A model generated the notes under the pieces. It saw only the letters and a program-made list of their open reading frames with translations, ran no database searches and was not told where the DNA came from. Of a DNA stretch of 64,000 nucleotides, positions 950 through 21,771 are shown piece after piece. Origin of the DNA: Patescibacteria group bacterium (GTDB taxonomy: Bacteria; Patescibacteriota; JABMPQ01; JAQVVF01); the NCBI GenBank assembly GCA_028699085.1, contig JAQVVF010000002.1:68557-132556 (forward strand), written 5' to 3'. How positions within the stretch are numbered: position 1 is the first letter of the stretch; each line of letters opens with the position of its first letter. A program made the translations under genes and the position numbers.

Positions 950-950
950 C

Positions 951-1214: not shown

Positions 1215-1233
1215 ATAATTTATAATACTGTAA

Positions 1234-1434: not shown

Positions 1435-1461
1435 ACTTTAAAACTTTATAACTTTAAAACT

Positions 1462-1869: not shown

Positions 1870-1898
1870 ATATTCGAAATTAGCTTAATTCTTAAAAA

Positions 1899-2540: not shown

Positions 2541-2583
2541 ATGTTTAAATAAAAATACTTAATAACTTTATAAAACCTTTAAA

Positions 2584-3087: not shown

Positions 3088-3098
3088 ATATAGATTAA

Positions 3099-3446: not shown

Positions 3447-3473
3447 AATATATGTAACTTAGTATCTTATAAA

Positions 3474-4304: not shown

Positions 4305-4349
4305 TATCGAAAATTATTACTTTATAAATTTTGTAACTTTAAAACTCCG

Positions 4350-4754: not shown

Positions 4755-4770
4755 ATATTTAACTTGAAAA

Positions 4771-5382: not shown

Positions 5383-5400
5383 ATGTAGCTAAAATAATCT

Positions 5401-6012
5401 TTAATTTCCACGAATTCTTAACCATGTTCCAACTTTGCCAGGCAAAGCTCCTTTTACGGCTAATACGTTTTCATTCACATTTATATCTAAAACTGATGAA
5501 TTCTTTGAAGTTACATTTTCTCCACCCATTCTTCCACCCATTCTTCTACCTTTCATAACGTGTTGAGGATGACCGGAGTTAATAGAACCAGGAGCTCTCC
5601 AATCGTGCTTATGACCATGCGAATGTGGTGCTCCATGAAAACCATGCCTCTTCATAACTCCAGCAAAGCCCTTACCTTTTGAAACGCCTGAAATAGACAA
5701 AGAATCACCAATTTTGAACTGTGAAATATCAATTTTATCACCAATTTTAAATGGAGTCAAGTCTTCAATTCTGAACTCTGCGAAACTACTTAAATTTTCT
5801 TTGATACCCGCCTTATTTAACGATCCTTTTACTCTACCATCGCCCTTTTTAACAATTTTATAGCCAACTTGAATAGCAGAATAGCCATCCTTTTTAGCAT
5901 CCAAAAGCCTAGTAACAAAACAATTACCAATTCTAATTAAGGTAACAGCTTCAAGTTTACCTTCTTTGTACATTCTACTCATTCCAATTTTTTCGCCAAA
6001 AATGAATTTCAT
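5401..6012 (-). CDS. rplC: 50S ribosomal protein L3
   Basis: MKFIFGEKIGMSRMY... and the Gly-rich loop of L3. Confidence 0.95.
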   Translation of the reverse strand: MKFIFGEKIGMSRMYKEGKLEAVTLIRIGNCFVTRLLDAKKDGYSAIQVGYKIVKKGDGRVKGSLNKAGIKENLSSFAEFRIEDLTPFKIGDKIDISQFKIGDSLSISGVSKGKGFAGVMKRHGFHGAPHSHGHKHDWRAPGSINSGHPQHVMKGRRMGGRMGGENVTSKNSSVLDINVNENVLAVKGALPGKVGTWLRIRGN

Positions 6013-6243
6013 TGCTTAAAAATATATATTAACAATATTTATCTATTTCTAAAAAATAAATAAAGACCTAGATAAATTAGGTTAACAAACCTCAAGCGAA
6101 CTAGTCGCCATCTTATTTGCTAAACTTAGTCTATATCTAAAACTATATCTAAACTCGTAACAAATACCTTTAAAACATTCACAAAATCTTTCTCAAGCAT
6201 TCAAATACTCACTCGATTTATTCGAAAAAGCATTCGAGTAAGA

Positions 6244-6585
6244 TTACATCTTTATTTCAACATCAACACCTGCTGGTAAATTAAGGTTCGACAAAGCATC
6301 AATAGTCTTTGGAGTTGGCTTTACAATATCAATCAATCTCTTATGAATTCTAATCTCAAATTGTTCACGAGCGTCTTTATGAACAAATGTAGATTTCAAA
6401 ACAGTATCCCTATGCTTTTCAGTAGGAAGTGGAATCGGGCCGATAACTTCTGCACCGGATCTCTTTGCAGTTTCAATTATCTGCTCTGCTGATTGATCAA
6501 TAATCTTATGATCAAATGCCTTAATTTTAATTCTTATTCTTGGAGAAGATGTTTCTTCTTTCTTTTCTTGATTCTTTGTCATCAA
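6244..6585 (-). CDS. rpsJ: 30S ribosomal protein S10 with a short N-terminal extension
   Basis: [17 protein letters not shown] is the S10 signature. Confidence 0.9.
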
Positions 6586-6596
6586 AAGGACTTATT

Positions 6597-6630
6597 TATT
6601 AAAACCCGACTCAAGTTTGATGAGTCGGGT
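6597..6630 (-). terminator. Intrinsic terminator or attenuator hairpin between tuf and rpsJ
   Basis: 10-bp stem acccgactca / tgagtcgggt; read on the minus strand it is followed by a short T-run. Confidence 0.5.
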
Positions 6631-6643
6631 CTTACTTAATCAT

Positions 6644-7837
6644 TTATTTAATAATCTTAGTTACAACACCAGCACCAACTGTTTTTCCGCCTTCGCGGAT
6701 AGCAAATTTCATCTTTTCTTCCATAGCAACTGGAGCAACTAATTTAACTTTCATTCCATTTACAGTATCGCCAGGCATAACCATTTCAGTTCCAGAAGGT
6801 AATGTTACTTCACCAGTAACATCAGTAGTTCTGACATAGAATTGTGGTTTATAGCCATTTGTAAATGCTGTATGGCGTCCGCCTTCTTCTTTCTTCAAAA
6901 TATAGGATTCTGCTTCAAATTCAGTATGAGGAGTAATTGAACCTGGTTTTGCTAATACTTGTCCTCTTTCAACATCTTCTTTCTTTGTACCACGTAACAA
7001 GATACCAGCGTTATCACCAGCTCTACCTTCATCCAAAGATTTATTGAACATTTCAATGCCAGTAGCAACAGTTTTTTGAGTAGGTTTTAAACCAACAATT
7101 TCAACAGCATCATTAATTTTAACCATGCCTCTTTCAATTCTACCAGTTACAACAGTTCCACGTCCTTCAATTGAGAATACATCTTCAATAGGCATTAATA
7201 ATGGTTTATCAACATCTCTTTTTGGATCAGGGATATATGAATCTAATTTTTCCAATAATTCTAGAATTGGTTTTCCTGCTTCACCTGATGGATCTTCCAA
7301 AGCTTTTAAAGCTGAACCTTTTACAATTGGAACTTCATCGCCAGGAAAATGATATTTCTTTAATAATTCTCTAACTTCTTCTTCAACCAAAGCAACCATT
7401 TCTGGGTCGTCAACTTGATCAACTTTGTTTAAAAATACAACAATTGATGGAACACCAACTTGATAAGCTAAAAGAATATGCTCTCTTGTTTGAGGCATTG
7501 GTCCATCAGCAGCAGATACAACCAAAATAGCACCATCCATTTGAGCTGCACCAGTAATCATATTCTTAATATAATCAGCGTGTCCTGGGCAATCAACGTG
7601 TGCATAGTGTCTTTTGTCTGTTTCATATTCACAGTGAGCTGTAGCAATAGTAATACCTCTCTCATGCTCTTCTGGAGCTGAGTCAATTTGATCAACTGAT
7701 CTTTCTTGTGCTTTACCTTTTCCAGTAGCATTGATAACTTTCAAAATAGCTGCTGTTAAAGTAGTTTTACCATGATCAACATGGCCAATTGTACCTACGT
7801 TTAAATGTGGTTTTGATCTGTCAAATTTTTCTGCCAT
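6644..7837 (-). CDS. tuf: Elongation factor Tu
   Basis: [18 protein letters not shown] and NKVD GTPase motifs; 397 aa. Confidence 0.97.
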
Positions 7838-8021
7838 TTTTTTATAGTTTAATTATTATTTTAATTATATACGCAAAAAATTATAATGTCAAATCTAAAT
7901 CCTCTATTTTTACAACTTAAAAAAAATTATGCAAAAATAAAAAATAATATTTCAAAAATCTATTTTGCAAGAAGCATTATAACAACATTTATGATATAAA
8001 GCAAGACCTTTTTGTTGATAA

Positions 8022-8465
8022 CTATAAGTCAAATCTCTCATCTTCTTGCTCACAATCAACATCATAATAATAGCTCAAATCTTCCTCAACAAAATTATCT
8101 TTCTTACTATTTTGCTTAAGCGATTCATAATCAATACATTGCTTATCTTCTATCCAATTCTTTTTTGGCAAGTATTCTGAATAATCTTTTTCTGCTTCTT
8201 CGTTTTCTAATTTCCAACTAGCTATGTCAGAATTTATTTTATCAATCAACATTTTTCCTGAACAACACTTATCAGTTTTTTCTTTTTTGCTCAATATTTT
8301 TTCATATTCAGGAATAGACATTAAAACAAAAGAAGGTTTTCCATTTTCTACAATAATATATTTTCCGCCAGTAGATTTAAATAATCTCAAAATTGCCGGA
8401 AATTCTTTTGGATCTAAAACATTGATTGTCATAATATTTTTATTTTTAATTATTAGATTATTCAA
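8022..8465 (-). CDS. Phd/YefM antitoxin-fold protein with a long acidic C-terminal tail
   Basis: N-terminal region ...YIIVENGKPSFVLMSIPEYEKIL fits the YefM/Phd motif (I.r.Gkp.avl.s.eeye.l). It is followed by about 90 aa of D/E/Y-rich sequence. The true start is probably the internal MTINVL near 8432. Confidence 0.5.
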   Translation of the reverse strand: MNNLIIKNKNIMTINVLDPKEFPAILRLFKSTGGKYIIVENGKPSFVLMSIPEYEKILSKKEKTDKCCSGKMLIDKINSDIASWKLENEEAEKDYSEYLPKKNWIEDKQCIDYESLKQNSKKDNFVEEDLSYYYDVDCEQEDERFDL

Positions 8466-8524
8466 TTATCCAATTACTAAATGTTTTCAATTAACATTTA
8501 GTAATTAAGAATTTAATAAACTTT

Positions 8525-10648
8525 TTATTTTCCTTCTTTTTTGCCAGTTCTTCCTTCAACAATCTGCAATTCTACATTCTTTGGAACTTGTTCATAATGA
8601 TCAAATTCCATTACGAAATTTCCACGTCCAGAAGTAATTGATCTGATTGTTGTTACATAGCCAAACATTGATGCAAGAGGAACCATGGCAGAAATAATTT
8701 TTAAGTTATCTCTATCTTCCATTTTTTGAATTTGTGCTCTTTTTGAATTTAAATCTCCAACAATATCACCCATGAACTCAGCTGGCATCATAGCTTCAAT
8801 TTTCATTATTGGTTCAAGTAAAATTGGTTTTGCTCTTCTCTCGCCTTCTTTCATCGCCATAGATGCAGCAATTTTGAAAGCAGCTTCAGAAGAATCAACA
8901 TCATGGAAAGATCCATCATATAATGTTGCTTTGATATCAATTACTGGATAACCAGCAATTACGCCTTCTGTTAATGCCTCTTTACAACCTTTTCCTACAG
9001 CAGGAATAAATTCTTGAGGAATGACACCACCTTTAATTTCATTAATAAATTCAAAACCTTTATTTCTTTCATTTGGTTCTAATCGGAGCCAAACATGTCC
9101 ATACTGACCATGACCACCTGATTGTCTAATATATTTTCCTTCAGCCTCAGCAGTACCCAAAATAGTTTCTTTATAAGCAACTTGTGGATTGCCAATATTA
9201 GCTTCGACTTTAAATTCTCTTTTCATTCTATCGACTAAAACATCCAAGTGTAATTCACCCATACCAGAAATAATTGTCTGCATTGTTTCTTCATCAGTAT
9301 GAACTTTAAAAGTAGGATCTTCTTCCGACAAAGCACGCAAAGCCATCGACATTTTTTCCTGATCAGCTTTTGTTTTTGGTTCAATGGCAATTGAAATAAC
9401 TGGTTCAGGAAAAGTAATTTTTTCCAACATAACAGGATGTTCCATATCACATAAAGTATCGCCAGTAGTAGTACCCTTTAAACCAACAATTGCTGCAATA
9501 TCACCAGCATAGACCTCATCCACTTCCTCTCTTTTATTTGCATGCATACGAATAATTCTACCGACTCTTTCTTTACTATCAGTTGAAGAATTCAAGACAT
9601 AAGATCCAGCTGTTAGAATACCTGAATAAACTCTAAAATAAACTAATTTTCCAACAAACGGATCAGTTGCTACTTTAAAAGCTAAAGCTGTAAATGGTTC
9701 AGTATCACTAACCTTTCTTTCAATTTTTTTTGTCTCGTCTTTTGGATCAAATGCAACTATTGCCGGCACATCTAAGGGGCTAGGCAAACAATCAATTACA
9801 TAATCTAATAACTTTTTGATAATTGCTTTTCTACCATCGCCACCCAAAACTGGAAAAAACTTTCCTGTCAAAGTTGCTTTTCTCAAAGCTGCTCTAATCT
9901 CTTCTTCAGTCAATTCTTGTCCTTCTAAATATTTCTCCATTAATTTATCATCAAATTCAACTATTTTTTCAATCATTTCAGCTCGATATTTTTCACACTT
10001 TTCTTTCATATCAGCAGGAATTTCTTTTGGCTCAGATAATTCCATACCCTCTTCTTTTGCATCGACATTAAAATAAGCCTTCATCATAATAAGATCTACA
10101 GCGCCTTTAATATCTTCGCCAGAACCAATTGGCAACATTACTGGATGAGCATTTTTTGATAATCTGCTGTGAATTGAATCTAAGCTTCTATAAAAATCAC
10201 CGCCAACTAAATTGATCTTATTCAAAAAACAAATTCTTGGAACATGATATTTGTCAGCTTGATGCCAAACAGTTTCCGATTGAGGCTCAACTCCCATTTT
10301 GCCATCAAAAACTACAACAGCTCCATCTAAAACACGCAAGGATCTTTCAACTTCTACTGTAAAATCAACGTGTCCAGGAGTATCAATAATATTAATACGA
10401 TGCTTGTCTTGTTCTTTTTTCCAAATTGGAGACCAAAAACAAGTTGTTGCAGCTGAAGTAATCGTAATTCCTCTTTCTTGTTCTTGTTCCATCCAATCCA
10501 TAGTAGCAGCGCCTTCATGAACTTCACCAATCTTATGTGAAATTCCAGTGAAAAACAAAATACGCTCAGTGATAGTTGTTTTACCAGCATCAATATGAGC
10601 TATAATTCCAATATTTCTTGTTTTTTCAAGTGAGTATTCTCTTGGCAT
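8525..10648 (-). CDS. fusA: Elongation factor G
   Basis: AHIDAGKTT and DTPGHVDF motifs; 707 aa. Confidence 0.97.
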
Positions 10649-10721
10649 AATAAAAATTTAAAAATAAAAATAAATAATAAAAAACACCTACTTAAATATA
10701 TAAAATATCTAAAATCAACTG

Positions 10722-11474
10722 TTATCTTACATCAAAAGGCAGAGTTAAAGGCTCTGAAAATGGCACTGTCACTTCTTCCAATAAGTATCTTTCAGCAATT
10801 CCTACATTAGATTCACATGCTCCCCCATTGGGCGTAAATGAAGCAATGGAAACAGATTGCTTTTGATTTCCATTTTTAACAAAATACCTATCTCCAAACA
10901 CTCTAAGAACTCTAAAATCATCAAGTGGACCATCTGTAATAAAAGCACTTCCTGTGCAATTTGCATCACTGAAATAGACTGTCAAAGAAGAATTTAAGTC
11001 AGCATCAATGTATAAAAATTTCTTCAACGACGGAATATAAATATCAAAAGTCCTTACACCAACATTATTATAAAATCTTAAACTAGCATCTACCAGTATT
11101 CCTAAATCTTGATTATTTGCATCATAAACATGCAATTGCATTCCAGGAACACCCTGTTCACCACGATCTCCTTTTTCTCCCCTTTCGCCTTGGATGCCTT
11201 TAATACCTTGCTCACCTTTATCACCCTTTTCACCTTGAGGTCCCTGATCTCCTTTTACTCCTTGTGGTCCTGTTGGCCCAACGACTGATTTGCTTCCTGC
11301 TTTTAATTTTGCGACATCAACACTTAAAGTATTTACTTTTTTCTTCAAATTTTTTACTAATGTCCAAATTGAAACTTTATTAGCAGCCTGAACAATTGTT
11401 ACACCAGATAATAAAAATAATACAAGAGATACCGCAACAATCGCAACTAAAAACTTTTTGTTTGATTCTTGCAT
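10722..11474 (-). CDS. Collagen-like triple-helix repeat protein with an N-terminal membrane anchor
   Basis: N-terminal TM segment (FLVAIVAVSLVLFLL). Then 15 consecutive G-X-Y triplets (GPTGPQGVKGDQGPQGEKGDKGEQGIKGIQGERGEKGDRGEQGVPG). Then a Cys-containing C-terminal domain of about 150 aa. Confidence 0.75.
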   Translation of the reverse strand: MQESNKKFLVAIVAVSLVLFLLSGVTIVQAANKVSIWTLVKNLKKKVNTLSVDVAKLKAGSKSVVGPTGPQGVKGDQGPQGEKGDKGEQGIKGIQGERGEKGDRGEQGVPGMQLHVYDANNQDLGILVDASLRFYNNVGVRTFDIYIPSLKKFLYIDADLNSSLTVYFSDANCTGSAFITDGPLDDFRVLRVFGDRYFVKNGNQKQSVSIASFTPNGGACESNVGIAERYLLEEVTVPFSEPLTLPFDVR

Positions 11475-11576
11475 ATTTTTTTATAATTAAATTCTATCGT
11501 TCTTATTATAATATAAATTATTTTTTTTGCAAGCTTCTTTCTGCTTTATAACTTTAAAAACTTTACAACTTTACAA

Positions 11577-11610
11577 ACTAAAACCTCCGTTTACTACGGA
11601 GGTTTTTTAT
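11577..11610. terminator. Hairpin terminator downstream of the PLDc_N gene
   Basis: Stem aacctccgt / acggaggtt. A T6 run follows on the plus side and T4 on the minus side. Confidence 0.55.
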
Positions 11611-11629
11611 TTATAGACTTCCTAAAATC

Positions 11630-12052
11630 TTATTGCTTTGGTGCAGCTGGAGCAGATGGAGCAGCAGGATTTGATCCACCCTTCATTGTTCCAACATTTT
11701 TTTTCTTAACCATGAAATAATATAAGATTGATGCTAACCAAGACCATCCAACAAAGAATGTGATGATCAAAACAGCCAACCATACGCCTCTATTTGGAAA
11801 TTCTCTTTTGATACAATCAACTAACATCATAATCCAGAATACCAAGAAAAATAGACCGATCAGTCCACCAATAATTGCGATGATAATTCCAAAGATACCC
11901 ATTCCCATTCCTAATCCTGCCAATGCTTCTGCATCGCTTTCGTTCAATGTTGTAGTAGTTGTATAATTAAAATCTAAATCATTTTGCGCAAAGGCAAAAT
12001 TTGCTCCCAATGTAAGTACGCATACTGTAAGAAAAGCAAAAATTTTCTTCAT
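11630..12052 (-). CDS. Small secreted membrane protein with a PLDc_N-like domain
   Basis: Signal peptide MKKIFAFLTVCVLTLGANFAFA, then two TM helices around ...WIMMLVDCIKREFPNRGVWLAVLIITFFVGW..YYF. This resembles the stand-alone PLD-nuclease N-terminal (PLDc_N) motif. Confidence 0.55.
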   Translation of the reverse strand: MKKIFAFLTVCVLTLGANFAFAQNDLDFNYTTTTTLNESDAEALAGLGMGMGIFGIIIAIIGGLIGLFFLVFWIMMLVDCIKREFPNRGVWLAVLIITFFVGWSWLASILYYFMVKKKNVGTMKGGSNPAAPSAPAAPKQ

Positions 12053-12177
12053 AATTTTTTTATTAATTAATTATTGTTTTGTTTTAAATAATTCTTATTG
12101 ACAGTCGACCTGCATCTGTCTACTTATCTGTAATATATCATCTTAAAAAAAACATGCAAGATTAATAATACACAGGA

Positions 12178-12205
12178 CAAAAAAATATGCGAGCAAGTCG
12201 CATAT
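12178..12205 (-). terminator. Intrinsic terminator after rpsG
   Basis: 8-bp stem atatgcga / tcgcatat; on the minus strand a T7 run follows. Confidence 0.6.
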
Positions 12206-12249
12206 TTGTGTTTTAGTAGTCTTAAAAAATTAGTAAAATTCGTAACTGA

Positions 12250-12720
12250 TTATCTTGCAAAGTGAGCAAAAGCTTTATTTGCTCTTGCCATTCTATGGGA
12301 ATCTTCTTTCTTTCTAACAGCTGATCCTTGATTCTTTGCCGCATCAATTATTTCTGTAGCTAATCTGATTGACATTGGCTGACCTTTTTTAGCTTTTGCA
12401 GCCTCAATAATCCATCTGAAGGCTAAAGTTTGTTTTCGATCGCCTCTTACTTCATAAGGGATCTGATAATTAGCGCCACCGATTCTTCTACCTTTTATTT
12501 CCAAATCTGGAGCTACATTTTTTAAAGCTAAATCAAAAATTTCAATTGGATCTTTTTTTAGTTTTGTAGAAATAAAACCTAATGTATTATAAATTGTTTT
12601 TCTAGCTGCGCCTTTCTTACCTCTTTCCATAATACTGTTGATAAATTTGGATACAACTAAATTACCATATTTTGGATCTGGTTTTAATTCTCTTTTATAT
12701 TGTCTTTTTCTTCTTGCCAT
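12250..12720 (-). CDS. rpsG: 30S ribosomal protein S7
   Basis: MARRKRQYKRELKPDPKYGN... is the S7 N-terminus. Confidence 0.95.
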   Translation of the reverse strand: MARRKRQYKRELKPDPKYGNLVVSKFINSIMERGKKGAARKTIYNTLGFISTKLKKDPIEIFDLALKNVAPDLEIKGRRIGGANYQIPYEVRGDRKQTLAFRWIIEAAKAKKGQPMSIRLATEIIDAAKNQGSAVRKKEDSHRMARANKAFAHFAR

Positions 12721-12828
12721 AAATGATTAAATTCTCAATTTACAATTCTCAATTTTCAAATTATCTAATCCAGCTTTGGAAATTGATTATTGAAAATTTA
12801 TTGTAAATTGATCATTGAAAATTAGTAA

Positions 12829-13272
12829 TTATTTTGTTTCAGCCTTCTTCTTTCCGGAAGCTGATTTCTTCGCGCCATATTTGCTTCTTTGTTGCATTCT
12901 ACCTTCAACACCAGCAGTATCTAAAATACCTCGAACAATATGATATTTTACACCAGGCAAATCCTTAACTCTTCCGCCACGAACAACAACGATTGAGTGC
13001 TCTTGCAAATTATGTCCTTCACCAGGAATATAAGCAGTTACTTCCATTCCGTTTGTTAATCTAACTCTAGCGATTTTTCTCAAAGCAGAGTTTGGTTTCT
13101 TTGGAGTAGTTGTTGTAACTTTTGTGCAAACACCTCTTTTGAAAGGATTGCCTTCTTCTAAAACAACATATCGTTTTTTAATCTTATTAAAATCCCTCTG
13201 CAATGCAGGTGCTTTAGATTTTCTTTTTCCAGATTTTCTTCTTCTCTTAACTAATTGATTTATTGTCGGCAT
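12829..13272 (-). CDS. rpsL: 30S ribosomal protein S12
   Basis: [12 protein letters not shown]...PNSALRK signature. The tracked ORF reaches 13308, but the start is probably MPTINQ at 13272. Confidence 0.95.
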
Positions 13273-14302: not shown

Positions 14303-16228
14303 ATGACAAAAACAAAAATAAAAACTAAACCAAAAACAAAGACAATGATTTCCATTGCCTTACTCGCATTTATAATTTCCGGCTTAGGTCTCGCTGCCGG
14401 AATTTTTTATAATGTAAATTATCCAAAATCAAAATGCAAAAATGCGTTTAAGATTGTCAAATCAAGCAAATGCCAAGGATCATACAAAAAATATACTGTT
14501 GTATCTTTTTGTTCAAAAAATAAAACAGTCCAAAAATTAGCAATAAAAAAATTAAAGAAAAATAAAAAGTGCTATAAATCTTATAAAATTATTAAGAAAA
14601 AAGCCTGCAAATCTTACTACAACAAAACAATTAAATTGTACTGCCCAAAACAAACTGAAAATAACATTAATCAAAATATTAATCAGCCAAACGAATCAAA
14701 TAATAGCACTAATTCACCAATAGGCGAGAATGCCAGCTTGAATCAAAATGAATCAACAGATAACACAGATGACAATGTATCAATTGACGATCCGATTGAT
14801 GAAGAATTCGAAGATATCGAAGATGAGTTGCCAGCAGAACCTATTACAGATTTAGAAGATAATTTAGCTGACATTAATCTAATCAACAAACCAGGATGGC
14901 CAAAAAATAAAAATCATGACAATGAAAAAATCCAATCCATTATTGCTGCAAATATCGACAATCAAGGATCAAAAGAAATAATCAACCAATCTCTAATTGA
15001 TGGCTATAGCACCTTAAGACTTTATGCTTGGCAAAATAATGGACAGCTCTTTAATAATAATTGGCCGATAGAAATTACCAATTGTCCAGCAGGCTGTGTT
15101 CCAAATCAACAAATCATTTCACATAATTTTAAAGCTGTAAATTTTCAAAATAGAGTCTCCAACTTTGCAACTCCTATTTCCATTGGAAAAAGCAATGAAA
15201 TAATTACTAGTATCTATAAAGCCGGACCTCCAGGTTTTTGGTTTCATGATTTATTCAGTTTCAATAAAGACGGACAGAATAATTCCTTCTGGCCAAAAAC
15301 AAAAGAAAAAAATACTACAAATCTAATTATCTCCAACTTAGAAAACAATCAAAATACAAATGTTCTTTTTGGCAGTTCCAATAATACCTACATTCTCAAT
15401 AATCAAGGTGCTGATATTTTTAATAATCTTTCTAATAAAAAAAGTTTTGCACTAACTATTGATGATTCAATTCAAGCTAATCCTAAATTAATTTCATTAG
15501 GCTTTGACTCTGGATCTCCTACATTGCAAATATATGATACAGCTGGAAACAATTTACCAAGTTTTCCTAAACAATTACCTGAACTAAAATCATACTCATC
15601 TTCTCCTTCTTTGACTCTTTCTGATCTCAATAACGACGGATCAAGAGAAATAATTATTCTTGGCGAACATACTCAAGATGGCCTATATTTAAATGCAATC
15701 CAAAATAACGGAAATTCTTTATCTGGATTTCCAATTCAGATTTCTGCTAACCTTACTTCAGATAGCGGTTTAAAAATTTCTAGTGCTGACATTGATCAAG
15801 ACAACAACAATGAAATAGTTTTATTTTTTAGAAATACTGATGAAAACATTATTACTTTTAAAATAATCAATTACAATGCTACGGTCTCGCTCACTAGCCA
15901 ATTGCCTGGAAACAAATTTAGCGAGCCTTTGCTAGCAAATCTAAACAACGATAATAATTTAGAGATTGTCACCACAATCGACAACTCACTATACATTATT
16001 GATACCGCTGAATTAGCTTTTAGAAAAATTGATGCAGCAGGCGATGATCCAAACGAATTTGGCTATTTTCCAACTGTGTTCTTAACTGATTTAGATAATA
16101 ATAATCGCATTGATTTTGTTTCCAACATTGGCAACAAAACAAATGCTTGGGAATTAAATTTCTCAACTAATAACATGCCTTGGCCAATGCCAGATCAAAA
16201 CAATCAGCGCACCAGAATCGCACCATAA
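14303..16228 (+). CDS. Large surface protein with FG-GAP/VCBS-like beta-propeller repeats
   Basis: N-terminal TM anchor, then a Lys/Cys-rich segment, an N/Q/D/E-rich low-complexity linker, and repeats of D-x-N-x-D/N-G/N-x-x-E-I type (DLNNDGSREIIILG, ADIDQDNNNEIVLFF, ANLNNDNNLEIVTT, TDLDNNNRIDFVSN). It starts 10 nt after rpmB. Confidence 0.6.
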   Translation: MTKTKIKTKPKTKTMISIALLAFIISGLGLAAGIFYNVNYPKSKCKNAFKIVKSSKCQGSYKKYTVVSFCSKNKTVQKLAIKKLKKNKKCYKSYKIIKKKACKSYYNKTIKLYCPKQTENNINQNINQPNESNNSTNSPIGENASLNQNESTDNTDDNVSIDDPIDEEFEDIEDELPAEPITDLEDNLADINLINKPGWPKNKNHDNEKIQSIIAANIDNQGSKEIINQSLIDGYSTLRLYAWQNNGQLFNNNWPIEITNCPAGCVPNQQIISHNFKAVNFQNRVSNFATPISIGKSNEIITSIYKAGPPGFWFHDLFSFNKDGQNNSFWPKTKEKNTTNLIISNLENNQNTNVLFGSSNNTYILNNQGADIFNNLSNKKSFALTIDDSIQANPKLISLGFDSGSPTLQIYDTAGNNLPSFPKQLPELKSYSSSPSLTLSDLNNDGSREIIILGEHTQDGLYLNAIQNNGNSLSGFPIQISANLTSDSGLKISSADIDQDNNNEIVLFFRNTDENIITFKIINYNATVSLTSQLPGNKFSEPLLANLNNDNNLEIVTTIDNSLYIIDTAELAFRKIDAAGDDPNEFGYFPTVFLTDLDNNNRIDFVSNIGNKTNAWELNFSTNNMPWPMPDQNNQRTRIAP

Positions 16229-16254
16229 AAATTTAAAAACATAAGAATATAAAA

Positions 16255-16280
16255 ACGAGACCAACAAGTCTCGTTTTTTT
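16255..16280 (+). terminator. Intrinsic terminator
   Basis: Stem acgagac / gtctcgt followed by T7. Confidence 0.7.
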
Positions 16281-16359
16281 ACTTTTTTGATAATTCAATA
16301 ATTAAGCAATCTAGCAATAAAACAATGAAACGATTTATCATTTAACCAGTCTAACTAAT

Positions 16360-16626
16360 TTATTTTTTATCTTTCTTAAACAATCGAACTAAGAATACAG
16401 CACCAATTACCATCAACAAAGTTAAAAAACCAGCATAAATAAATTTCGCCCAAATATTATCTCTTTGCGGAAAAATATAATCAATAAATGACTTAATCGC
16501 ATCATTCCATGCTAAACCAACAATCAAACCGAAAGCAGCAGCAATATAACCGCTCACTTTCTTCAATGCTTCATCTCTTAATTTTATACTCTGCTCTTTA
16601 ATTTTATTTAAAGCCATTTTTACCAT
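16360..16626 (-). CDS. Small two-TM membrane protein of unknown function
   Basis: 88 aa with a conserved-looking AFGLIVGLAWNDAIKSFIDYIFP motif. Confidence 0.5.
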   Translation of the reverse strand: MVKMALNKIKEQSIKLRDEALKKVSGYIAAAFGLIVGLAWNDAIKSFIDYIFPQRDNIWAKFIYAGFLTLLMVIGAVFLVRLFKKDKK

Positions 16627-16711
16627 ATTTTAATATGCTAATTAATCAATCAAACAAACTAGCATATTTTCGAAATAAAATCAATCTTTAACAATTTAAC
16701 AATAAAAATTT

Positions 16712-16984
16712 TTATTTCTTTCCTTCCCAATAAGCATCTCCTTCTTCTTCCATTTTTTCTAATCTATCATAATAATCAGGAAATTCATTCAAATGTGCTA
16801 GAGCAATTTTTCCAGTCATTACAGGATCATCATTAGTCACATTAGTATGCATATCAACAGTTCCATGCTCTAATTCGACATCTAGACCTCTTCGAAATTG
16901 ATCGACGTCAAATTTTGTCCAATCAATTCCCAATTTTTCACCAATTTGCTTAGTTTCTTCTACTGTAAAATTTTGTTTTGACAT
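16712..16984 (-). CDS. Conserved hypothetical cytosolic protein
   Basis: 90 aa, acidic, with motifs VELEHGT and AHLNEFPDYYDRL. No family assigned. Confidence 0.5.
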   Translation of the reverse strand: MSKQNFTVEETKQIGEKLGIDWTKFDVDQFRRGLDVELEHGTVDMHTNVTNDDPVMTGKIALAHLNEFPDYYDRLEKMEEEGDAYWEGKK

Positions 16985-17206
16985 ATTGTTTAATTAATAT
17001 TTTTATGTTTTTTTATTCTTATATAATCTCTTTCTCTTTTTAATTTTAAAGGAGGAGCAACTCTCAGCCTATGTGATGTTCGATAGGCTACCTTTCCATG
17101 ATGAGTTTTGCTAGAAGCGTAATTTTTCATAAATTTATTTTAACACAAAACCCTGTTATAATATAGTAGTAATAATAACTATTAATCTATATTTAATAAA
17201 TATTTT

Positions 17207-18034
17207 ATGAAAAGATTTTTACTCGCCATCACTTCAACGCTTTTTTTACCAACTCTTGGTTTAGCTTTTTTGTTTCTCAATATCACCCACACCATGCTCT
17301 CGCCAAATATTTACAAAAAAGCTTTGACTGATGCCAATGCTTATGAACGTTTATCAAAAATTAATATCAATCAATTATTGTCTATTTTTTCCAAAAACAA
17401 AAATTTAGATATAATGCAAAAAGTCAAAATTAAAGTTTCCAAAGAAACATTGCAAAAAACAGTTGAGCCAACTATCGATTTCTTTTTTGTTGATGTTTTA
17501 AGAAATGGCAAAAAAACAATTATCATTGATTTATCTGATTTTCAAAAAGATTTTTTAGGCCAATATAATATTCCTATTTATCTTTTTCCAGAAGGAATTA
17601 TTCCGCAAAATTATTCTATTCCCATTCCTGGAACAATCTTGCTATTTCAACCATTTATTGCCATCTTGCCAATTCTAACTTATTTATTTTTTGCACTCTC
17701 TTTCTTTTATTTATTTTTAATAATTCTTTTCAAAAAAAATAATCGCGGAAAATTAAGATTGCCAGCCTATCTTATTTTTAGCTTAGGATTAACTTATCTA
17801 ATTATTTATTTTGTTGCTTGGTTTTTAGATCCATCCAAATATATCTCATTAGGATCGCAAAATTTTGCCCAGATTGCTCTAGATGTTTTAAATAATCTAA
17901 AAGTTGTTTTTATCAGACCTTATTTAATTGAAGGCATCATTTTAATAAGCATCAGTATAATTGCATTTATTATTTCTTTTTTTATTCCTCAAGAAAAAAA
18001 TAAATTAATTTTGCCCAACAAACCAATCAAATAG
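17207..18034 (+). CDS. Hypothetical membrane protein
   Basis: N-terminal signal/TM segment and three or four C-terminal TM helices. A candidate TATAAT box lies at about 17153. Confidence 0.5.
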   Translation: MKRFLLAITSTLFLPTLGLAFLFLNITHTMLSPNIYKKALTDANAYERLSKININQLLSIFSKNKNLDIMQKVKIKVSKETLQKTVEPTIDFFFVDVLRNGKKTIIIDLSDFQKDFLGQYNIPIYLFPEGIIPQNYSIPIPGTILLFQPFIAILPILTYLFFALSFFYLFLIILFKKNNRGKLRLPAYLIFSLGLTYLIIYFVAWFLDPSKYISLGSQNFAQIALDVLNNLKVVFIRPYLIEGIILISISIIAFIISFFIPQEKNKLILPNKPIK

Positions 18035-18043
18035 TTTGAAACA

Positions 18044-18077
18044 AAAAACGGATCTTTCCAGAATCCGTTTTTTTATT
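18044..18077. terminator. Bidirectional intrinsic terminator
   Basis: Stem aacggat / atccgtt, flanked by an A-run upstream and a T-run downstream. It serves the convergent genes 17207..18034 (+) and 18097..18879 (-). Confidence 0.7.
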
Positions 18078-18096
18078 TAAAATAATCCTTTTAATA

Positions 18097-18879
18097 TTAC
18101 ATCGGCCTCAATGTTCCAGAAAAAATTTGCCAAGCCAAAGCTGATTTTGCAATCAAACTTAATAGAATATAAATTGATTCGCCATACAAATAATTTTTCC
18201 AAGGCCCAACTTTCCTATACTGCAAAAACATATTTAAAGCAAAGATATCAAAAAACACAAATATCGAAATCAAAATTCCATAAACAAATTTTGGAATTAC
18301 ATCACCAACGGAAGAAACTGCTCCAGCAAAATAAAGATAAATCACAATCCATGGCACGATTCCCATAATGCAACCAAAAACAAAAGCAGTCCAATTGATC
18401 TTCGTCGTCAATTGATTATATTTTTCCATCATTAGCCCAAATAAAATCATTGCCGAATTAACAGTAAACATTAATATCAAGCTTGATAAGTCATACATAC
18501 CGCATAGCATTGAAATAATCACAATCATTAATGAAGAAGAAATAGCATATTCATACCATCTGATATAATTGATGTGCTTTTTTAAATTTCTTTCATAGAA
18601 TTTAAATAATACTGTTGCAGTCAAAAAATGAGCTAATGCTGAAAGAAATAAGAACATCGCTACCATCGGACCAATTCTCAATTCTGCAACTTCCTTTATA
18701 ACTGTTGTTATTGCTTTTGTTGCCAAATCAAAACTCAAATAAGATGTCGTGATTGGCAATTTAAAATCATTGCTCAACCACAACATTAAGCAAGCTTGAA
18801 TCAAATGGAAAAAACCCATCACTGCATTATAAATCCGCAGCTTGCGATAAGTTTTTTCAGAACCTGTTTTTGTTGTCAT
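18097..18879 (-). CDS. Heliorhodopsin (inverted-topology seven-TM retinal protein)
   Basis: Strong resemblance to heliorhodopsin 48C12 along the whole length: FHLIQ, LSNDFKLP, FLFLSALAHF, NYIRWYEYAISSSLMIVIISMLCG, NSAMILFGLMMEKY and the C-terminal YILLSLIAKSALAWQIFSGTL. That last segment contains the Schiff-base lysine. Confidence 0.85.
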   Translation of the reverse strand: MTTKTGSEKTYRKLRIYNAVMGFFHLIQACLMLWLSNDFKLPITTSYLSFDLATKAITTVIKEVAELRIGPMVAMFLFLSALAHFLTATVLFKFYERNLKKHINYIRWYEYAISSSLMIVIISMLCGMYDLSSLILMFTVNSAMILFGLMMEKYNQLTTKINWTAFVFGCIMGIVPWIVIYLYFAGAVSSVGDVIPKFVYGILISIFVFFDIFALNMFLQYRKVGPWKNYLYGESIYILLSLIAKSALAWQIFSGTLRPM

Positions 18880-18928
18880 TTTTATTTTTAAATTATTTTA
18901 TAAAGAAGCAATTTATGTATCTCTATTC

Positions 18929-19096
18929 TTATTTGCAATTTTCTTTTGGCATTTCCATATTTGGGTTGCCATGCTTCACCCACTTACCTTTTTCACAAAC
19001 CCAAGAATCTTCTGGAGTAGAAAATCTTAATATTAAAACAATTCCAATTCCTAAAATAATTATTGCCCCAATAATAATTAAAAGTGTTTTTTTCAT
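18929..19096 (-). CDS. Small single-TM membrane protein (55 aa)
   Basis: MKKTLLIIIGAIIILGIGIVLILRFSTPEDSWVCEKGKWVKHGNPNMEMPKENCK. It lies between the TerC-like gene and the heliorhodopsin on the same strand and is below the ORF-track size cutoff. Confidence 0.4.
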   Translation of the reverse strand: MKKTLLIIIGAIIILGIGIVLILRFSTPEDSWVCEKGKWVKHGNPNMEMPKENCK

Positions 19097-19105
19097 TAAT
19101 TATCA

Positions 19106-20038
19106 TTAAACTTTAATAAGCTTTTCTTGTTTACCATGCCTGTAAGACAAATATAAAAAGAAAACTAAAAGCGAAATTGTAGATACCGGAGCAATCCAGA
19201 ATGGGAATTCTTTGCCAAAAGATTCTAGAATCATAATTGCGCCAAGAACTCCAATCGAATACATTGCGCCATTTTTTAAATAAGCAAATTTTGCAATCAC
19301 ATCTATTCCTTTGATTGTAAGCTCTCTAACTACAAGCGCGCCCAAACCATTACCAATCAAAATCAAAGGCACATAAATAGTAAAAGCAAAAGCACCAATT
19401 ACACCATCAATAGAAAAAGAAGCATCTAATACTTCTAAATAAAATATCTTGCTCCATGCGCCAACACTGCTTGATTTCAGCAATGTTTTGCCTTTTTCTT
19501 CGGCATTTTTCTTCAAACCATCAGTAATAAAAAAGGCAGTTGCGCCGATTGAAGTCGATAATGCCATTGCCGGATTTCCAGCGCTAACAGACAATCCAAT
19601 CATTACTGTAAAAAATACTGAGGCAATTGCATAAAACCAAACTCCTTGATGAAATATAATATGTTCAACTAAAAAAGCATATTTCTTTTTTTCCAGAAAT
19701 AGCCAAGACAAAGCAACAAACAGCAAATAAATTCCACCACCAGATAATAATAATGGCTTTGATTCTTCCAACGCATCTTTTATAGCTGGATCATTTGAAA
19801 AAGCAAATGTTATAACTTCAAAAAATCCTAGATCAGTATTAGCTAGCCAAACAATCAAAAAAGGCAAGATACCTCTAACCAAAAATACTGCAATCAACAA
19901 TCCCCAAAACAAAAATATTTTCCGAAATCTTTTCGGTAAAGTTTGTAAAACATGAGCATTAACAATTGCATTATCAACACTTGAAATGATTTCAAAAACA
20001 CACAAACCTAAAACAATAACTAGATCTTGTAATAACAT
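19106..20038 (-). CDS. TerC/DUF475-family integral membrane protein
   Basis: Two internal repeats, each carrying an S-x-DN/DG motif (ISSVDNAIVNAHVL and SFSIDGVIGAFAF), in a multi-pass membrane protein of 310 aa. Confidence 0.6.
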   Translation of the reverse strand: MLLQDLVIVLGLCVFEIISSVDNAIVNAHVLQTLPKRFRKIFLFWGLLIAVFLVRGILPFLIVWLANTDLGFFEVITFAFSNDPAIKDALEESKPLLLSGGGIYLLFVALSWLFLEKKKYAFLVEHIIFHQGVWFYAIASVFFTVMIGLSVSAGNPAMALSTSIGATAFFITDGLKKNAEEKGKTLLKSSSVGAWSKIFYLEVLDASFSIDGVIGAFAFTIYVPLILIGNGLGALVVRELTIKGIDVIAKFAYLKNGAMYSIGVLGAIMILESFGKEFPFWIAPVSTISLLVFFLYLSYRHGKQEKLIKV

Positions 20039-20105
20039 TCTTAAGTATTAAAAAAGTAATATTAATATATTATGATATTTTTTTGATTTTTGCTAGTTAA
20101 AAATA

Positions 20106-20294
20106 CTATTTTGTCTCACCACGAAAACCATATCCAGGTTTAACCTTTTTCTTAGCATGATGTTTTTTTTCAGCTTTTATTGTCTTGCCGATATTCTGTA
20201 CATCTTTAAATTCACCTGTCCTTTCTCTCTTAGTGTACAATTTTTTACCACGTCTTTCCATTTTTGTCCTAAAGACACCTTTTCTTTTTGGCAT
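20106..20294 (-). CDS. Small highly basic hypothetical protein
   Basis: 62 aa, Lys/Arg-rich (MPKRKGVFRTKMERRGKKLYTKRER...). No family recognised. Confidence 0.35.
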   Translation of the reverse strand: MPKRKGVFRTKMERRGKKLYTKRERTGEFKDVQNIGKTIKAEKKHHAKKKVKPGYGFRGETK

Positions 20295-20345
20295 AATTTT
20301 AAATTATTAATACTTATCCGCCAAAGTTCAATAGAACAAAGACGG

Positions 20346-20375
20346 AAAAAAATATACCTAGATAATCTAGGTATA
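20346..20375 (-). terminator. Intrinsic terminator after the DEAD-box helicase gene
   Basis: 9-bp palindromic stem tatacctag / ctaggtata with a T7 run on the minus strand. Confidence 0.65.
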
Positions 20376-20403
20376 TTCTAACATAATATTTAAAAAATAT
20401 TAA

Positions 20404-21771
20404 TTACCAGCCAAGCCCATAATTAAATTGTCCGCCATTTCTTTTTGGAAAACGTCTGCTTCCTTGTCCGTCAGTTTGCTGACGTCCACGTCTTTGTCCT
20501 TGAAAATTAGATCTGCCTCTTCCTTGGAAGGAAGTATTAGTTCTAGCTTGTATTGGACGAAAAGAATTGAAAGCAGGCTGGATTGATTGCTCTAATTCTG
20601 GAGTTTTCGAAATACTAATGCTATTTCTAATTAGTCTTTCTATTTGAACAACTTTATATTTTTGATCTGACATAGCAAATGAAATTGCTCGTCCACCTTT
20701 TCCAGCTCTGCCAGTTCTACCAATTCGATGAACATAATCTTCTGGATCATCAGGCAAATCATAATTGATAACTAACTCAATACTTGAAACATCAATACCT
20801 CTTGATGCAACATCAGTTGCAACCAAAATTCTTGATCTGCCTTGCTTAAATAAATTTAAAGCTGCTTGTCTTTGAGCAAAGCTCTTATTGGAATGTATTT
20901 CAGAAGCATTGAATCCAGAAGTAATCAAAAATCTACATAATTTGCTTGCACCAAATTTAGTTCTAGTAAAAATTAATACAGTTCCTTTGTATTGTTTTAA
21001 CAATTTTGATACTAGTAATCTTTTTTGATGAGGATTTACAACAAACAATTCCTGATCAACATTTTCAGCTGCAGTGCCAGCTTGAGCTACTTCAATCCTG
21101 ATTGGACTTTTCATATATTTTGCTGCAATTGCAACTATTCTTCCAGGCATTGTTGCTGAAAACAACATCGTTTGCCTATTTGTTGGTACAGTTTCCAATA
21201 TTTCTTTAATTTGAGGCGCAAAACCCATATCTAGCATTCTGTCAGCTTCATCCAAAACTAAAGTATTAACTTTGCTTAAATTCAAATTGCGTCTTTGTAA
21301 ATGATCAATTATACGGCCTGGAGTGCCGATAATAATGTGTGGATGGCTATAGATTCTTTGTCTTTGCATGCTCATTGATGCGCCACCGACCAATATCGCA
21401 GTTTTGAGACCAAGAGTCCTGCCAATTTTTAATAATGATTCATCAACCTGCATCGCCAATTCTCTTGTTGGCAAAAGAATTAAACCTTGACCATTTGTCT
21501 TGGCAATTCTTTGCATCATTGGCAAACCAAAAGCCATTGTCTTACCAGTACCAGTTTGAGCTATGCCGATAATATCTTTTTCAGAAATAGCAACTGGAAT
21601 AGCCTTTTCTTGAATTGGAGTTGGAATTGTAAATTGTTGTTTTTTCAACGAATTTAAAAGATCTGGGACTAATCCTAGATTTAAAAACGACGCTTTCTTT
21701 GAAAGCACTGCTTCATTTGACATAAATATGTGATCCGATTCCTGCGACGTCACATATTTAGGTAAATGCAT
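20404..21771 (-). CDS. DEAD-box ATP-dependent RNA helicase with an RGG/GRG-rich C-terminal tail
   Basis: Q-motif, AQTGTGKT (motif I), DEAD, SAT and HRIGRTGR motifs. The C-terminus reads ...FQGRGRSNFQGQRRGRQQTDGQGSRR. The start may instead be the internal MSNEAV at 21723. Confidence 0.9.
   Translation of the reverse strand: MHLPKYVTSQESDHIFMSNEAVLSKKASFLNLGLVPDLLNSLKKQQFTIPTPIQEKAIPVAISEKDIIGIAQTGTGKTMAFGLPMMQRIAKTNGQGLILLPTRELAMQVDESLLKIGRTLGLKTAILVGGASMSMQRQRIYSHPHIIIGTPGRIIDHLQRRNLNLSKVNTLVLDEADRMLDMGFAPQIKEILETVPTNRQTMLFSATMPGRIVAIAAKYMKSPIRIEVAQAGTAAENVDQELFVVNPHQKRLLVSKLLKQYKGTVLIFTRTKFGASKLCRFLITSGFNASEIHSNKSFAQRQAALNLFKQGRSRILVATDVASRGIDVSSIELVINYDLPDDPEDYVHRIGRTGRAGKGGRAISFAMSDQKYKVVQIERLIRNSISISKTPELEQSIQPAFNSFRPIQARTNTSFQGRGRSNFQGQRRGRQQTDGQGSRRFPKRNGGQFNYGLGW

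Follow-up and report, generated by a model that had tools for sequence, protein, structure and literature searches.

A heliorhodopsin gene in a strain-variable cassette behind a DUF475/TerC-clan gene in Patescibacteria

Heliorhodopsin (HeR) is a membrane protein that senses light. Its function is known for few proteins, and in each case it has been inferred from an operon neighbour. In a Patescibacteria group bacterium, a HeR gene follows a gene for a DUF475/TerC-clan membrane protein and an ORF for a 55-aa membrane peptide, which raises the question of whether this order reflects a functional unit or the place at which the HeR gene was inserted. An earlier note on this DNA had leaned towards the former and proposed that the trio may be co-transcribed as a 'light-linked membrane module'. 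We examined the window, the whole stretch of 64,000 nucleotides that was analysed, in which the locus consists of the following features.

20106..20294, minus strand: lysine/arginine-rich ORF of 62 aa, upstream of the DUF475 gene
20038..19106, minus strand: gene for a DUF475/TerC-clan integral membrane protein of 310 aa; a housekeeping gene that belongs to the syntenic backbone
19096..18929, minus strand: ORF for a 55-aa single-TM signal-anchor peptide, between the DUF475 gene and HeR
18879..18097, minus strand: HeR gene, 260 aa, full length; third of the trio
18091..19083, minus strand: presence/absence cassette (55-aa peptide and HeR), about 993 nt, delimited by blastn against L169
18073..18043, minus strand: intrinsic terminator hairpin, AAAAAAACGGAUUCUGGAAAGAUCCGUUUUUU, with an A-tract and a U-tract on its flanks
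17207..18034, plus strand: gene for a convergent multi-TM protein of 275 aa, at the downstream edge of the insertion site

The three genes point the same way and lie close together, as the earlier note had stated, with gaps of 9 nt (TGATAATTA) between DUF475 and the peptide and 49 nt between the peptide and HeR. They share a strand, have short spacers and contain no internal terminator, as a HeR-partner operon would. On either side, the 275-aa gene is syntenic in the related loci L082, L085, L169 and L171 (54-93% identity) and its product found no match in Pfam or NCBIfam, leaving it with no family assigned, and the 62-aa ORF is kept in relatives at 84-100% identity. The terminator scan detected nothing between the 62-aa ORF and the DUF475 gene.

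The heliorhodopsin and its retinal

When we compared the 260-aa protein with family models, the Pfam profile PF18761 matched over its entire length (positions 1-242 of 242, E=4.3e-101, 337.7 bits, cutoff 26.7), and the NCBIfam equivalog NF038020 gave 348 bits (cutoff 100). The PDB entry 6is6 of TaHeR was matched at 8e-87. The AF2 model (pLDDT 89.1, pTM 0.85) contains seven long helices and two strands (40-51 and 56-68), and its predicted fold, with a long β-hairpin between TM1 and TM2, is superimposable on the solved HeRs. Foldseek placed the model on 6is6 with TM-scores of 0.91/0.95 and an rmsd of 1.7 Å, while type-1 rhodopsins reached just 0.5-0.65.

The functional residues are in place. TM7 (helix 230-256) carries the SxxxK pattern S241-x3-K245 within the lysine motif SLIAKSALAWQIFSGTL, and K245 aligns to TaHeR K238 and is invariant in 36 homologues. 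E110 of the RWYEY motif on TM3 aligns to TaHeR E108 at the counterion position, and the conserved His pair is formed by H25 on TM1 and H84 on TM2; in the 36-sequence alignment K245, S241, E110, H25 and H84 are all invariant or near-invariant. The charge count, which is a prediction only, gives 5 K/R in residues 1-15, while the loops TM2-3, TM4-5 and TM6-7 hold a further 8; the opposite face has 6 K/R offset by 6 D/E. This distribution agrees with a cytoplasmic N-terminus. The profile search and the structure prediction that the earlier note had proposed thus bear out its call of a full-length heliorhodopsin and place the lysine on TM7 and the glutamate on TM3. Based on its sequence and predicted fold, the protein is a bona fide heliorhodopsin and an ordinary member of the family, and GenBank already lists the identical protein under the label 'heliorhodopsin HeR [Patescibacteria group bacterium]' (MDD3887442.1). 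It would bind all-trans retinal at K245 with E110 as the counterion, in a predicted inverted 7-TM topology, and by homology it would act as a slow-cycling photosensor, not as a pump.

TaHeR of the Thermoplasmatales archaeon SG8-52-1 (6is6, 7clj, 7u55) is 54% identical to the window HeR over the Foldseek alignment, and the two have the lysine and the Glu counterion in common, along with the His pair and the long β-hairpin on the extracellular side. They differ in host, archaeal for TaHeR and bacterial (Patescibacteria) for the window protein, which, unlike TaHeR, carries 5 additional residues in the region of the TM5-TM6 loop.

The suggestion that HeRs are scarce in tiny, possibly symbiotic genomes did not survive comparison with the published and sampled record. 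CPR genomes have been reported to contain 115 rhodopsins in 86 genomes, all but 17 of them HeRs, with SLIAK among the commonest motifs (Chiriac et al. 2022, PMC9166423), and 31 of the 80 best HeR genome loci in our search belong to Patescibacteria. The window HeR shares family, SLIAK motif and reduced-genome host with the CPR HeRs described previously (PMC9166423; Bulzu et al. 2021, PMC8612252). Those reported are mostly from Saccharimonadia, whereas the nearest named relatives of the window HeR (70-76% identity) are from 'Paceibacterota' and 'Patescibacteria group' MAGs. Our scan of viral contigs found no close HeR relatives, and so gives no hint that the gene is carried by phages.

As for the chromophore, we scanned 39 ORFs of the window, comprising most of those of at least 200 aa outside the ribosomal-protein/translation-factor block (1-13,000) and the ORFs around the locus. 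None matched the BCD/blh, SQS_PSY, lycopene cyclase or amino oxidase Pfam families, in agreement with the earlier statement that the window holds no genes for retinal synthesis. HeR hosts commonly lack retinal genes, and TaHeR quickly binds retinal supplied from outside (PMC9296517); retinal would presumably be scavenged from other organisms.

A cassette between DUF475 and its terminator

The first gene of the trio encodes a protein that matched Pfam DUF475 (PF04332; 4.4e-45, 155.2 bits, cutoff 27, profile positions 1-288 of 293), Pfam TerC (PF03741; 7.4e-21, 75.1 bits, cutoff 27.8) and NCBIfam NF010612 (392.6 bits, cutoff 386). It missed TIGR03716 for YkoY/MeeY (65 against a cutoff of 138.5 bits) and TIGR03717 for the YjbE type (22.5 against 134.8). 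No yybP-ykoY Mn riboswitch or other Rfam element was found near the locus, either in the whole window at gathering thresholds or in 17900-20500 at E<=1. Since the YkoY/MeeY cutoff was missed and the Mn riboswitch is absent, a metal link for this protein could be drawn only at the level of the clan. MeeF and MeeY, TerC proteins of Bacillus subtilis to which PMC10550928 ascribes a role in Mn metalation of exported enzymes, fall in the same Pfam clan as the window DUF475 protein, which also matches PF03741 and, unlike MeeY/YkoY, falls below that cutoff and has no yybP-ykoY riboswitch upstream. Our literature search returned no characterised DUF475 member. DUF475 homologues number at least 7969 at E<=0.001 (all but 31 of 8000 scored candidates were significant), and the best 120 of these at least 7969 are 65-99% identical, the named ones being all Patescibacteria. 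Judging from this distribution, DUF475 is a core housekeeping gene of Patescibacteria that is present in thousands of HeR-less genomes.

The comparison with the syntenic relatives L169 and L170 bears on the origin of the gene order. Both loci hold an intact DUF475 gene without the peptide and HeR, in the order DEAD helicase, 62-aa ORF, DUF475, convergent 275-aa gene, DUF5661 and DUF5654. Merely 60 nt separate DUF475 from the 275-aa gene, and this interval holds the same terminator hairpin (AAAAAACGGATTCTGAAAAGATCCGTTTTT) about 27 nt past the DUF475 stop codon; by this sequence comparison, the hairpin is the native terminator of DUF475. When we aligned the window to L169 by blastn, 20054..19084 and 18090..15612 matched and nothing between them did. 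The peptide and HeR are an indel of about 993 nt between the DUF475 stop codon and DUF475's own terminator. A junction repeat, AT(G/A)AAAAAAAC, with copies at 19096..19086 and 18076..18067, leaves the cassette boundaries uncertain by about 20 nt, and 24 nt of L169 find a match at each junction. An NJ tree built from four shared proteins has no root and hence gives no direction, gain or loss, for the cassette; a midpoint root placed on L085 would favour its loss in L169.

Because the cassette sits between DUF475 and the terminator of DUF475, the adjacency reflects the place of insertion and not a conserved DUF475-HeR unit. HeR and the gene for the two-cysteine, membrane-anchored peptide form a strain-variable cassette of about 1 kb in one narrow Patescibacteria lineage, lying between the stop codon of housekeeping DUF475 and its putatively bidirectional terminator. 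The account as a whole, in which a genuine HeR belongs to an accessory cassette, DUF475 is an incidental neighbour, transcription is by probable read-through and retinal is scavenged, is in our judgement rather likely.

The terminator itself folds at -14.1 kcal/mol (18073..18043, z=-3.6), and 0 of 200 shuffles were as stable. It is read as bidirectional because an A-tract and a U-tract flank it, and it is common to HeR and the convergent 275-aa gene. A simple terminator scanner missed this hairpin, which was detected by folding. The DUF475-peptide spacer is unstructured (z=-0.04), and the peptide-HeR spacer contains a weak AU-rich hairpin of -6.1 kcal/mol without a U-tract; the earlier observation that a strong terminator follows only the last gene was therefore correct. 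When the window, L085 and L171 were scanned for sigma-70 promoters, matches were no more frequent than in shuffled controls, so such scans are uninformative in this DNA of 31% GC. Since no terminator lies between the genes, we infer that read-through from the DUF475 promoter probably accounts for at least part of the transcription of the cassette.

The best-surviving alternative is that HeR, with or without the peptide, has its own promoter in or just past the 3' end of DUF475, in which case the trio would not be an operon. The spacer between DUF475 and the peptide extends in L085 over 106 nt to a TTG start and contains a perfect TATAAT, and L171 has a GC-containing hairpin in its peptide-HeR spacer; both features were read by eye, and they indicate that the internal architecture differs among relatives. 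The scanner, however, did not call the L085 TATAAT, which is not accompanied by an acceptable -35 element. DUF475 and the peptide are just 9 nt apart in the window, no minus-strand promoter-like site was called near 18880-19200, and the genes are not separated by a terminator. We consider a separate promoter unlikely, while giving it more weight than the other alternatives.

Gene neighbourhoods and the remaining alternatives

In the 172 HeR loci that we surveyed by tblastn and clade-specific HMMs, DUF475 adjoins HeR only in L001, L082-84, L171 and L085, whose HeRs are 91-100% identical. Neither a DUF475 nor a TerC gene adjoins HeR in any of the 163 other, out-of-clade loci. The two families are likewise absent from the 25 families with at least two members in a Pfam census of 140 upstream neighbours and from 28 distinct multi-TM neighbours on either side of HeR. 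When we ran the DUF475 HMM at low stringency (--max, E<=100) over six-frame ORFs of the 172 loci, nothing out-of-clade rose above noise. A TerC-clan neighbour was thus found in the clade of the window HeR and in published Cryobacterium loci only, and it does not recur across independent HeR lineages beyond these.

A separate observation concerns the nearest out-of-clade HeRs (70-74% identical), which are preceded by an ECF sigma gene and a gene for a 250-aa membrane protein. This order of ECF sigma, membrane protein and HeR may be a better lead to HeR signalling. We found no literature on heliorhodopsin together with DUF475 or with anti-sigma.

A true 'light-linked membrane module' would, by analogy, have photoactivated HeR bind the DUF475/TerC-clan protein and modulate a presumed metal (Mn-type) export or metalation. 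The analogy is to the operon-encoded pairs AbHeR-glutamine synthetase (PMC9529153), TfHeR-photolyase (PMC9769723) and OcHeR-OmrDE ABC transporter (PMC11109279), in which the characterised HeRs regulate their operon neighbours, interaction and light modulation having been demonstrated. The window resembles them in that a HeR gene lies beside a candidate partner in a putative operon; it differs in that the DUF475-HeR pair is known from gene order, with a weak comparative signal. The common strand, the short gaps and the absence of an internal terminator are consistent with a module, as is the adjacency, which the window, L082, L171 and L085 retain although their flanks were rearranged. PFK/flavodoxin lies upstream and DUF378 downstream in L085, and a P-type ATPase is found near the locus in L171, and both keep the order DUF475-peptide-HeR; an order kept in at least three diverged lineages despite insertions or swaps on both flanks could reflect selection for linkage. 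Redox and oxidative-stress genes are enriched around HeRs (PMC8612252), with VKOR, DsbB and thioredoxin among the neighbours in our survey, and the Mn metalation ascribed to MeeF/MeeY would fit as well.

The HeR-TerC pairing is not a new idea, since an operon group with a 'TerC family protein' (group 9) was described in four Cryobacterium strains, in which TerC precedes helR by 66 nt (Cho et al. 2024, PMC11109279). As in the window, a TerC-clan membrane protein gene lies directly upstream in the same orientation, separated by a short spacer. The Cryobacterium protein, in contrast, is a classical TerC of an actinobacterium with no peptide gene, whereas the window has DUF475, a patescibacterial host and the 55-aa ORF in between; both are putative pairs known from gene order. 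Two independent lineages in hundreds of HeR contexts are about what chance would give, the rough expectation being about 0.5-1. With 0 of 163 other loci, intact DUF475 without HeR in L169/L170, DUF475 in thousands of HeR-less Patescibacteria and a metal link at clan level, the adjacency is explained by the indel of about 1 kb, and we regard the module as improbable.

The 55-aa peptide gave no match in Pfam or NCBIfam. It begins with MKK and a TM helix, followed by RFSTPEDSWVCEKGKWVKHGNPNMEMPKENCK with two conserved Cys, and its family comprises 675 cluster representatives at E<=1e-3, either stand-alone (about 56 aa) or as residues 1-54 of proteins of 100-500 aa. The ORF is in frame in L082, L171 and L085, which with the window make four lineages without indels (pN/pS 0.34-0.51). 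This in-frame conservation and the 675-cluster family rule out a spurious AT-rich ORF. We also rejected an extension of DUF475 by stop-codon read-through, as three stops (TAA TGA TAA) intervene in the window, and in L085 the two lie in different frames.

That HeR and this peptide are the functional pair, the peptide being an accessory subunit or extracytoplasmic partner that moves with HeR while DUF475 is irrelevant, agrees with their joint presence or absence (both are missing from L169/L170), with the stop-to-stop ORF spacing, always 33-42 nt, upstream of HeR within the clade, with the preserved frame, and with a predicted N-in/C-out topology that would put the Cys domain on the side of the large extracellular β-hairpin of HeR. 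This pairing is nevertheless very unlikely: a canonical start ahead of the TM helix exists only in the window (ATG) and L085 (TTG), L082 and L171 having none in frame; the MKK start of the window coincides with the junction repeat (the terminator A-tract) and may therefore be a junction by-product; the family represents a generic anchor module, placed N-terminally to diverse C-terminal domains; and the peptide does not adjoin HeR in other lineages, the single other match lying 4 kb off in L017.

Meaning for heliorhodopsin biology

Because HeR functions have become known through operon neighbours, a second independent TerC-clan neighbour would be a usable lead. By analogy, TerC-clan proteins might be recurrent HeR partners that arose independently in Cryobacterium and in the window clade, with HeR acting as a light-dependent gate on metal (Mn-type) export or on the metalation of exoproteins, a proposal that we hold to be quite improbable. 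If it were true, light-gated metal export or metalation would be a defence against photo-oxidative stress.

The comparative evidence instead favours an accessory cassette that happens to lie behind a housekeeping gene, and the practical value of this case is modest. It carries a caution, in that an insertion site alone can yield tight spacing and a shared terminator. Natural strains with and without the cassette, represented by the window and L169, form a clean, near-syntenic presence/absence pair and thus a ready-made comparison.

The heliorhodopsin and its genomic setting

Three consecutive co-oriented ORFs with short spacers, and a strong terminator only after the last of them, had been described in the earlier note, and all of these particulars were confirmed. 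The features of the locus are as follows.

20038..19106, minus strand: 310-aa TerC-clan membrane protein (Pfam DUF475, 4.4e-45; TerC, 7.4e-21)
19096..18929, minus strand: 55-aa ORF without Pfam match (the peptide)
18879..18097, minus strand: 260-aa heliorhodopsin (HeR; PF18761, E=4.3e-101, profile positions 1-242 of 242)
18073..18043, minus strand: hairpin after the HeR gene (folding -14.1 kcal/mol, z=-3.6)
17207..18034, plus strand: convergent 275-aa gene on the other side of the shared hairpin

The spacers are 9 nt (DUF475 to peptide) and 49 nt (peptide to HeR). None of 200 shuffles folded as well as the hairpin, and when both internal spacers were folded, no comparable structure was found. 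Since an A-tract and a U-tract flank the hairpin, it can terminate HeR as well as the convergent 275-aa gene.

The heliorhodopsin identity is established by the full-length profile match and by the NCBIfam equivalog NF038020 (348 bits; cutoff 100). Of the relatives with a solved structure, the best is the HeR of Thermoplasmatales archaeon SG8-52-1 (TaHeR, PDB 6is6), which aligned end to end (E=8e-87). An AlphaFold2 model built from 36 homologues (mean pLDDT 89) shows seven long helices and, between TM1 and TM2, the beta-hairpin typical of HeRs, and superposes on 6is6 with TM-scores of 0.91/0.95 and an rmsd of 1.7 Å, while type-1 rhodopsins reach only ~0.5-0.65. As had been proposed, the lysine is on the seventh helix (K245, motif S241-L-I-A-K245). 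The RWYEY glutamate (E110) is on the third, and H25 and H84 are located in the first and second. K245 and E110 align with K238 and E108 of TaHeR and the His pair is matched; the two proteins have the lysine, glutamate, histidines and fold in common. All four residues are invariant or nearly so across homologues. The N-terminus is predicted to be cytoplasmic, which fits the charge distribution.

GenBank already lists the exact protein under MDD3887442.1 as 'heliorhodopsin HeR [Patescibacteria group bacterium]', and the contig there is 200,518 bp long. Significant homologues in the family search numbered 4,522, and Patescibacteria (Saccharibacteria, Dojkabacteria, Paceibacterota and Woesebacteria) account for 31 of the 80 best genome loci. 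Among CPR genomes, 115 rhodopsins have been reported in 86 genomes, all but 17 of them HeRs, with SLIAK among the commonest lysine motifs (Chiriac et al. 2022, PMC9166423). Contrary to the premise, HeRs are thus not scarce in tiny genomes, and the window HeR is correctly spotted but ordinary.

The lack of retinal-synthesis genes in the window was borne out by four Pfam runs on 39 ORFs (most of those of at least 200 aa outside the ribosomal-protein and translation-factor block 1-13,000, plus the locus ORFs), among which no carotenoid or retinal enzyme was found; this result speaks for the 64-kb window and not for the whole genome. The window encodes ribosomal proteins, FtsZ/FtsA, ComEC, DprA, topoisomerase I, RelA/SpoT, ParAB, SHMT and similar proteins. 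Such an absence is normal among CPR rhodopsin hosts, and TaHeR rapidly takes up external retinal via a lateral opening (PMC9296517).

Elsewhere in the window, a 250-aa ORF with collagen triple-helix repeats (10722-11474, minus strand; Pfam 1.3e-09) lies between the EF-G and ribosomal S7/S12 genes, an insertion that is unusual for the str operon region. At ~40 kb both gene orientation and GC skew change, the skew being strongly negative up to that point and close to zero between 40 and 54 kb, and parA/parB lie at 53.8-55.5 kb (53770-55492) beside the window's only tRNA; together these are possibly a replication-related landmark.

A peptide-heliorhodopsin cassette behind DUF475

An exhaustive HMMER search placed the 55-aa ORF in a family of 675 cluster representatives (E<=1e-3), which rules out an artefact. 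The unit consists of a basic N-terminus, a TM helix and RFxTPEDxWxCxxGxWxKHGNPxxxxPxxxC. It stands by itself (about 56 aa) or makes up the first ~54 residues of diverse proteins of 100-500 aa, and so is a generic membrane-anchor module in which two cysteines are conserved. The module (18929-19096; homologues P0244-P0393) is frequently joined to large extracytoplasmic domains; it matches no model in Pfam or NCBIfam and is apparently uncurated. Within the clade of related loci that carry DUF475 beside HeR, the frame is kept without indels (pN/pS 0.34-0.51). An in-frame ATG/GTG/TTG before the TM helix is present only in the window (ATG) and L085 (TTG); L171 retains a truncated 34-aa ORF and L082 none, so that translation of the peptide in all lineages is uncertain. 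Outside the clade, no family member adjoins HeR, and one lies at 4 kb in locus L017.

The layout is best understood from a syntenic relative, L169, on a 654-kb contig of GCA_964574655.1 (L170 is a second copy), whose DUF475 homologue P0122 is 88% identical. First, its gene order is that of the window (DEAD helicase, 62-aa ORF, DUF475, convergent 275-aa gene, DUF5661, DUF5654, FG-GAP protein, L28, M50 peptidase, S12, S7, EF-G), with neither peptide nor HeR at the syntenic locus. Second, the gap between DUF475 and the 275-aa gene is only 60 nt, and it contains AAAAAACGGATTCTGAAAAGATCCGTTTTT, the same hairpin as that after HeR in the window. Third, blastn aligned positions 20054..19084 and 18090..15612 of the window to L169, leaving 19083..18091 (993 nt) unmatched, and 24 nt of L169 match both junctions. 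Finally, AT(G/A)AAAAAAAC is present at both junctions, where it forms the terminator A-tract (right) and the beginning of the 55-aa ORF, ATG-AAA-AAA (left).

Peptide and HeR thus form a presence/absence cassette between the stop codon of a housekeeping DUF475 gene and its native terminator. Such a position by geometry alone explains the same strand, the tight spacing and the single end terminator, and makes read-through from the DUF475 promoter into peptide and HeR likely. Four shared proteins gave an unrooted NJ tree, midpoint rooting of which would favour loss in L169 rather than primary absence.

Relatives show the neighbourhood to be a hot spot for insertions: a DUF378 gene stands between HeR and the 275-aa gene in L085 (6172-6378), a P-type cation ATPase follows the 275-aa gene in L171 (4007-6517), and in L169 (9432-9860) and L171 a 142-aa gene separates the 62-aa ORF from DUF475. 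The window and L082 are also mosaic: DUF475 (19106-20038 vs L082:8850-9782) is only 84% identical, as it is between L082 and L171, despite near-identical window and L082 flanks of 93-100% (HeR 99%, DEAD helicase 98%, 62-aa ORF 100%, DUF5661 100%), a pattern that suggests recombination at the locus.

DUF475 adjacency across heliorhodopsin loci

We searched 172 loci (80 species-representative genomes, 80 metagenome contigs, and contigs surrounding the nearest homologues of HeR and DUF475) by tblastn and HMMs built from homologue sets. DUF475 stood beside HeR only in L001 (identical to the window), L082-84 (HeR 99% identical), L171 (94%) and L085 (91%); the other 163 HeR loci had no DUF475 in their available flanks of up to 10 kb per side. 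Nor did a Pfam census of 140 upstream neighbours and 28 distinct either-side neighbours with at least four hydrophobic segments, a filter that the window's own DUF475 protein passes, contain any TerC or DUF475. The census included DUF3159, ABC-2 permeases and the commonest upstream families of the 140 loci, namely VKOR (6), B12-binding plus MerR (CarH-like light regulators, 5-6), NAD-dependent epimerases (5) and ECF sigma factors (4). DsbB, DsbD, thioredoxin and VIT1 also occur among HeR neighbours, and the set fits the published redox and oxidative-stress theme. Of the 8,000 candidates scored in the DUF475 search, all except 31 reached significance. The best 120 homologues are 65-99% identical, the named ones all Patescibacteria; DUF475 is a core gene of Patescibacteria.

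A true functional module of DUF475 and HeR has some points in its favour. The DUF475-peptide-HeR order is kept in three diverged lineages despite gene changes on both sides, including PFK and flavodoxin upstream in L085 besides the insertions in L085 and L171. HeRs elsewhere bind and modulate operon neighbours, namely glutamine synthetase (PMC9529153), photolyase (PMC9769723) and an ABC exporter (PMC11109279). One of ten published helR neighbour groups is 'TerC family protein' (Cho et al. 2024, PMC11109279), comprising four Cryobacterium strains with TerC, 66-67 nt and helR (Supplementary Data 9), the one published parallel to this adjacency. MeeF and MeeY, which are TerC proteins, have a role in the Mn metalation of enzymes that are exported (PMC10550928). 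However, assuming one to three TerC-clan genes per ~1,000-4,000-gene genome, we estimate a chance expectation of about 0.5-1, which is close to the two independent lineages seen in several hundred HeR contexts. DUF475 also functions without HeR in L169 and thousands of other genomes. The 310-aa protein falls below the MeeY/YkoY subfamily cutoff and is barely above that of NF010612 (a 'hypothetical protein' equivalog), and no Mn riboswitch was found for its gene. We thus consider such a module improbable; a real TerC-clan functional link keeps a low probability, but the comparative data do not support it. For the light-linked three-gene module suggested earlier, the best reading is an accessory cassette, specific to the lineage, that sits in the 3' untranslated region of the housekeeping DUF475 gene.

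ECF sigma genes beside heliorhodopsin

The closest HeRs outside the clade (70-74% identical) all lie in one co-oriented trio, in which a 250-aa multi-TM gene has its start overlapped by an ECF sigma gene (188 aa) and is followed by HeR.

Loci of the co-oriented trio
L088:5887-7998
L003:8662-10768
L004:3253-5359
L092:2063-4169
L093:4662-6768

The 250-aa protein matches no Pfam family and is anti-sigma-like, and our literature search found no paper pairing heliorhodopsin with an anti-sigma factor. In 15 Caldisericota/Cryosericum-type loci, a divergent ECF sigma gene lies directly upstream of HeR. For HeR signalling, the ECF sigma association may offer a better lead than DUF475.
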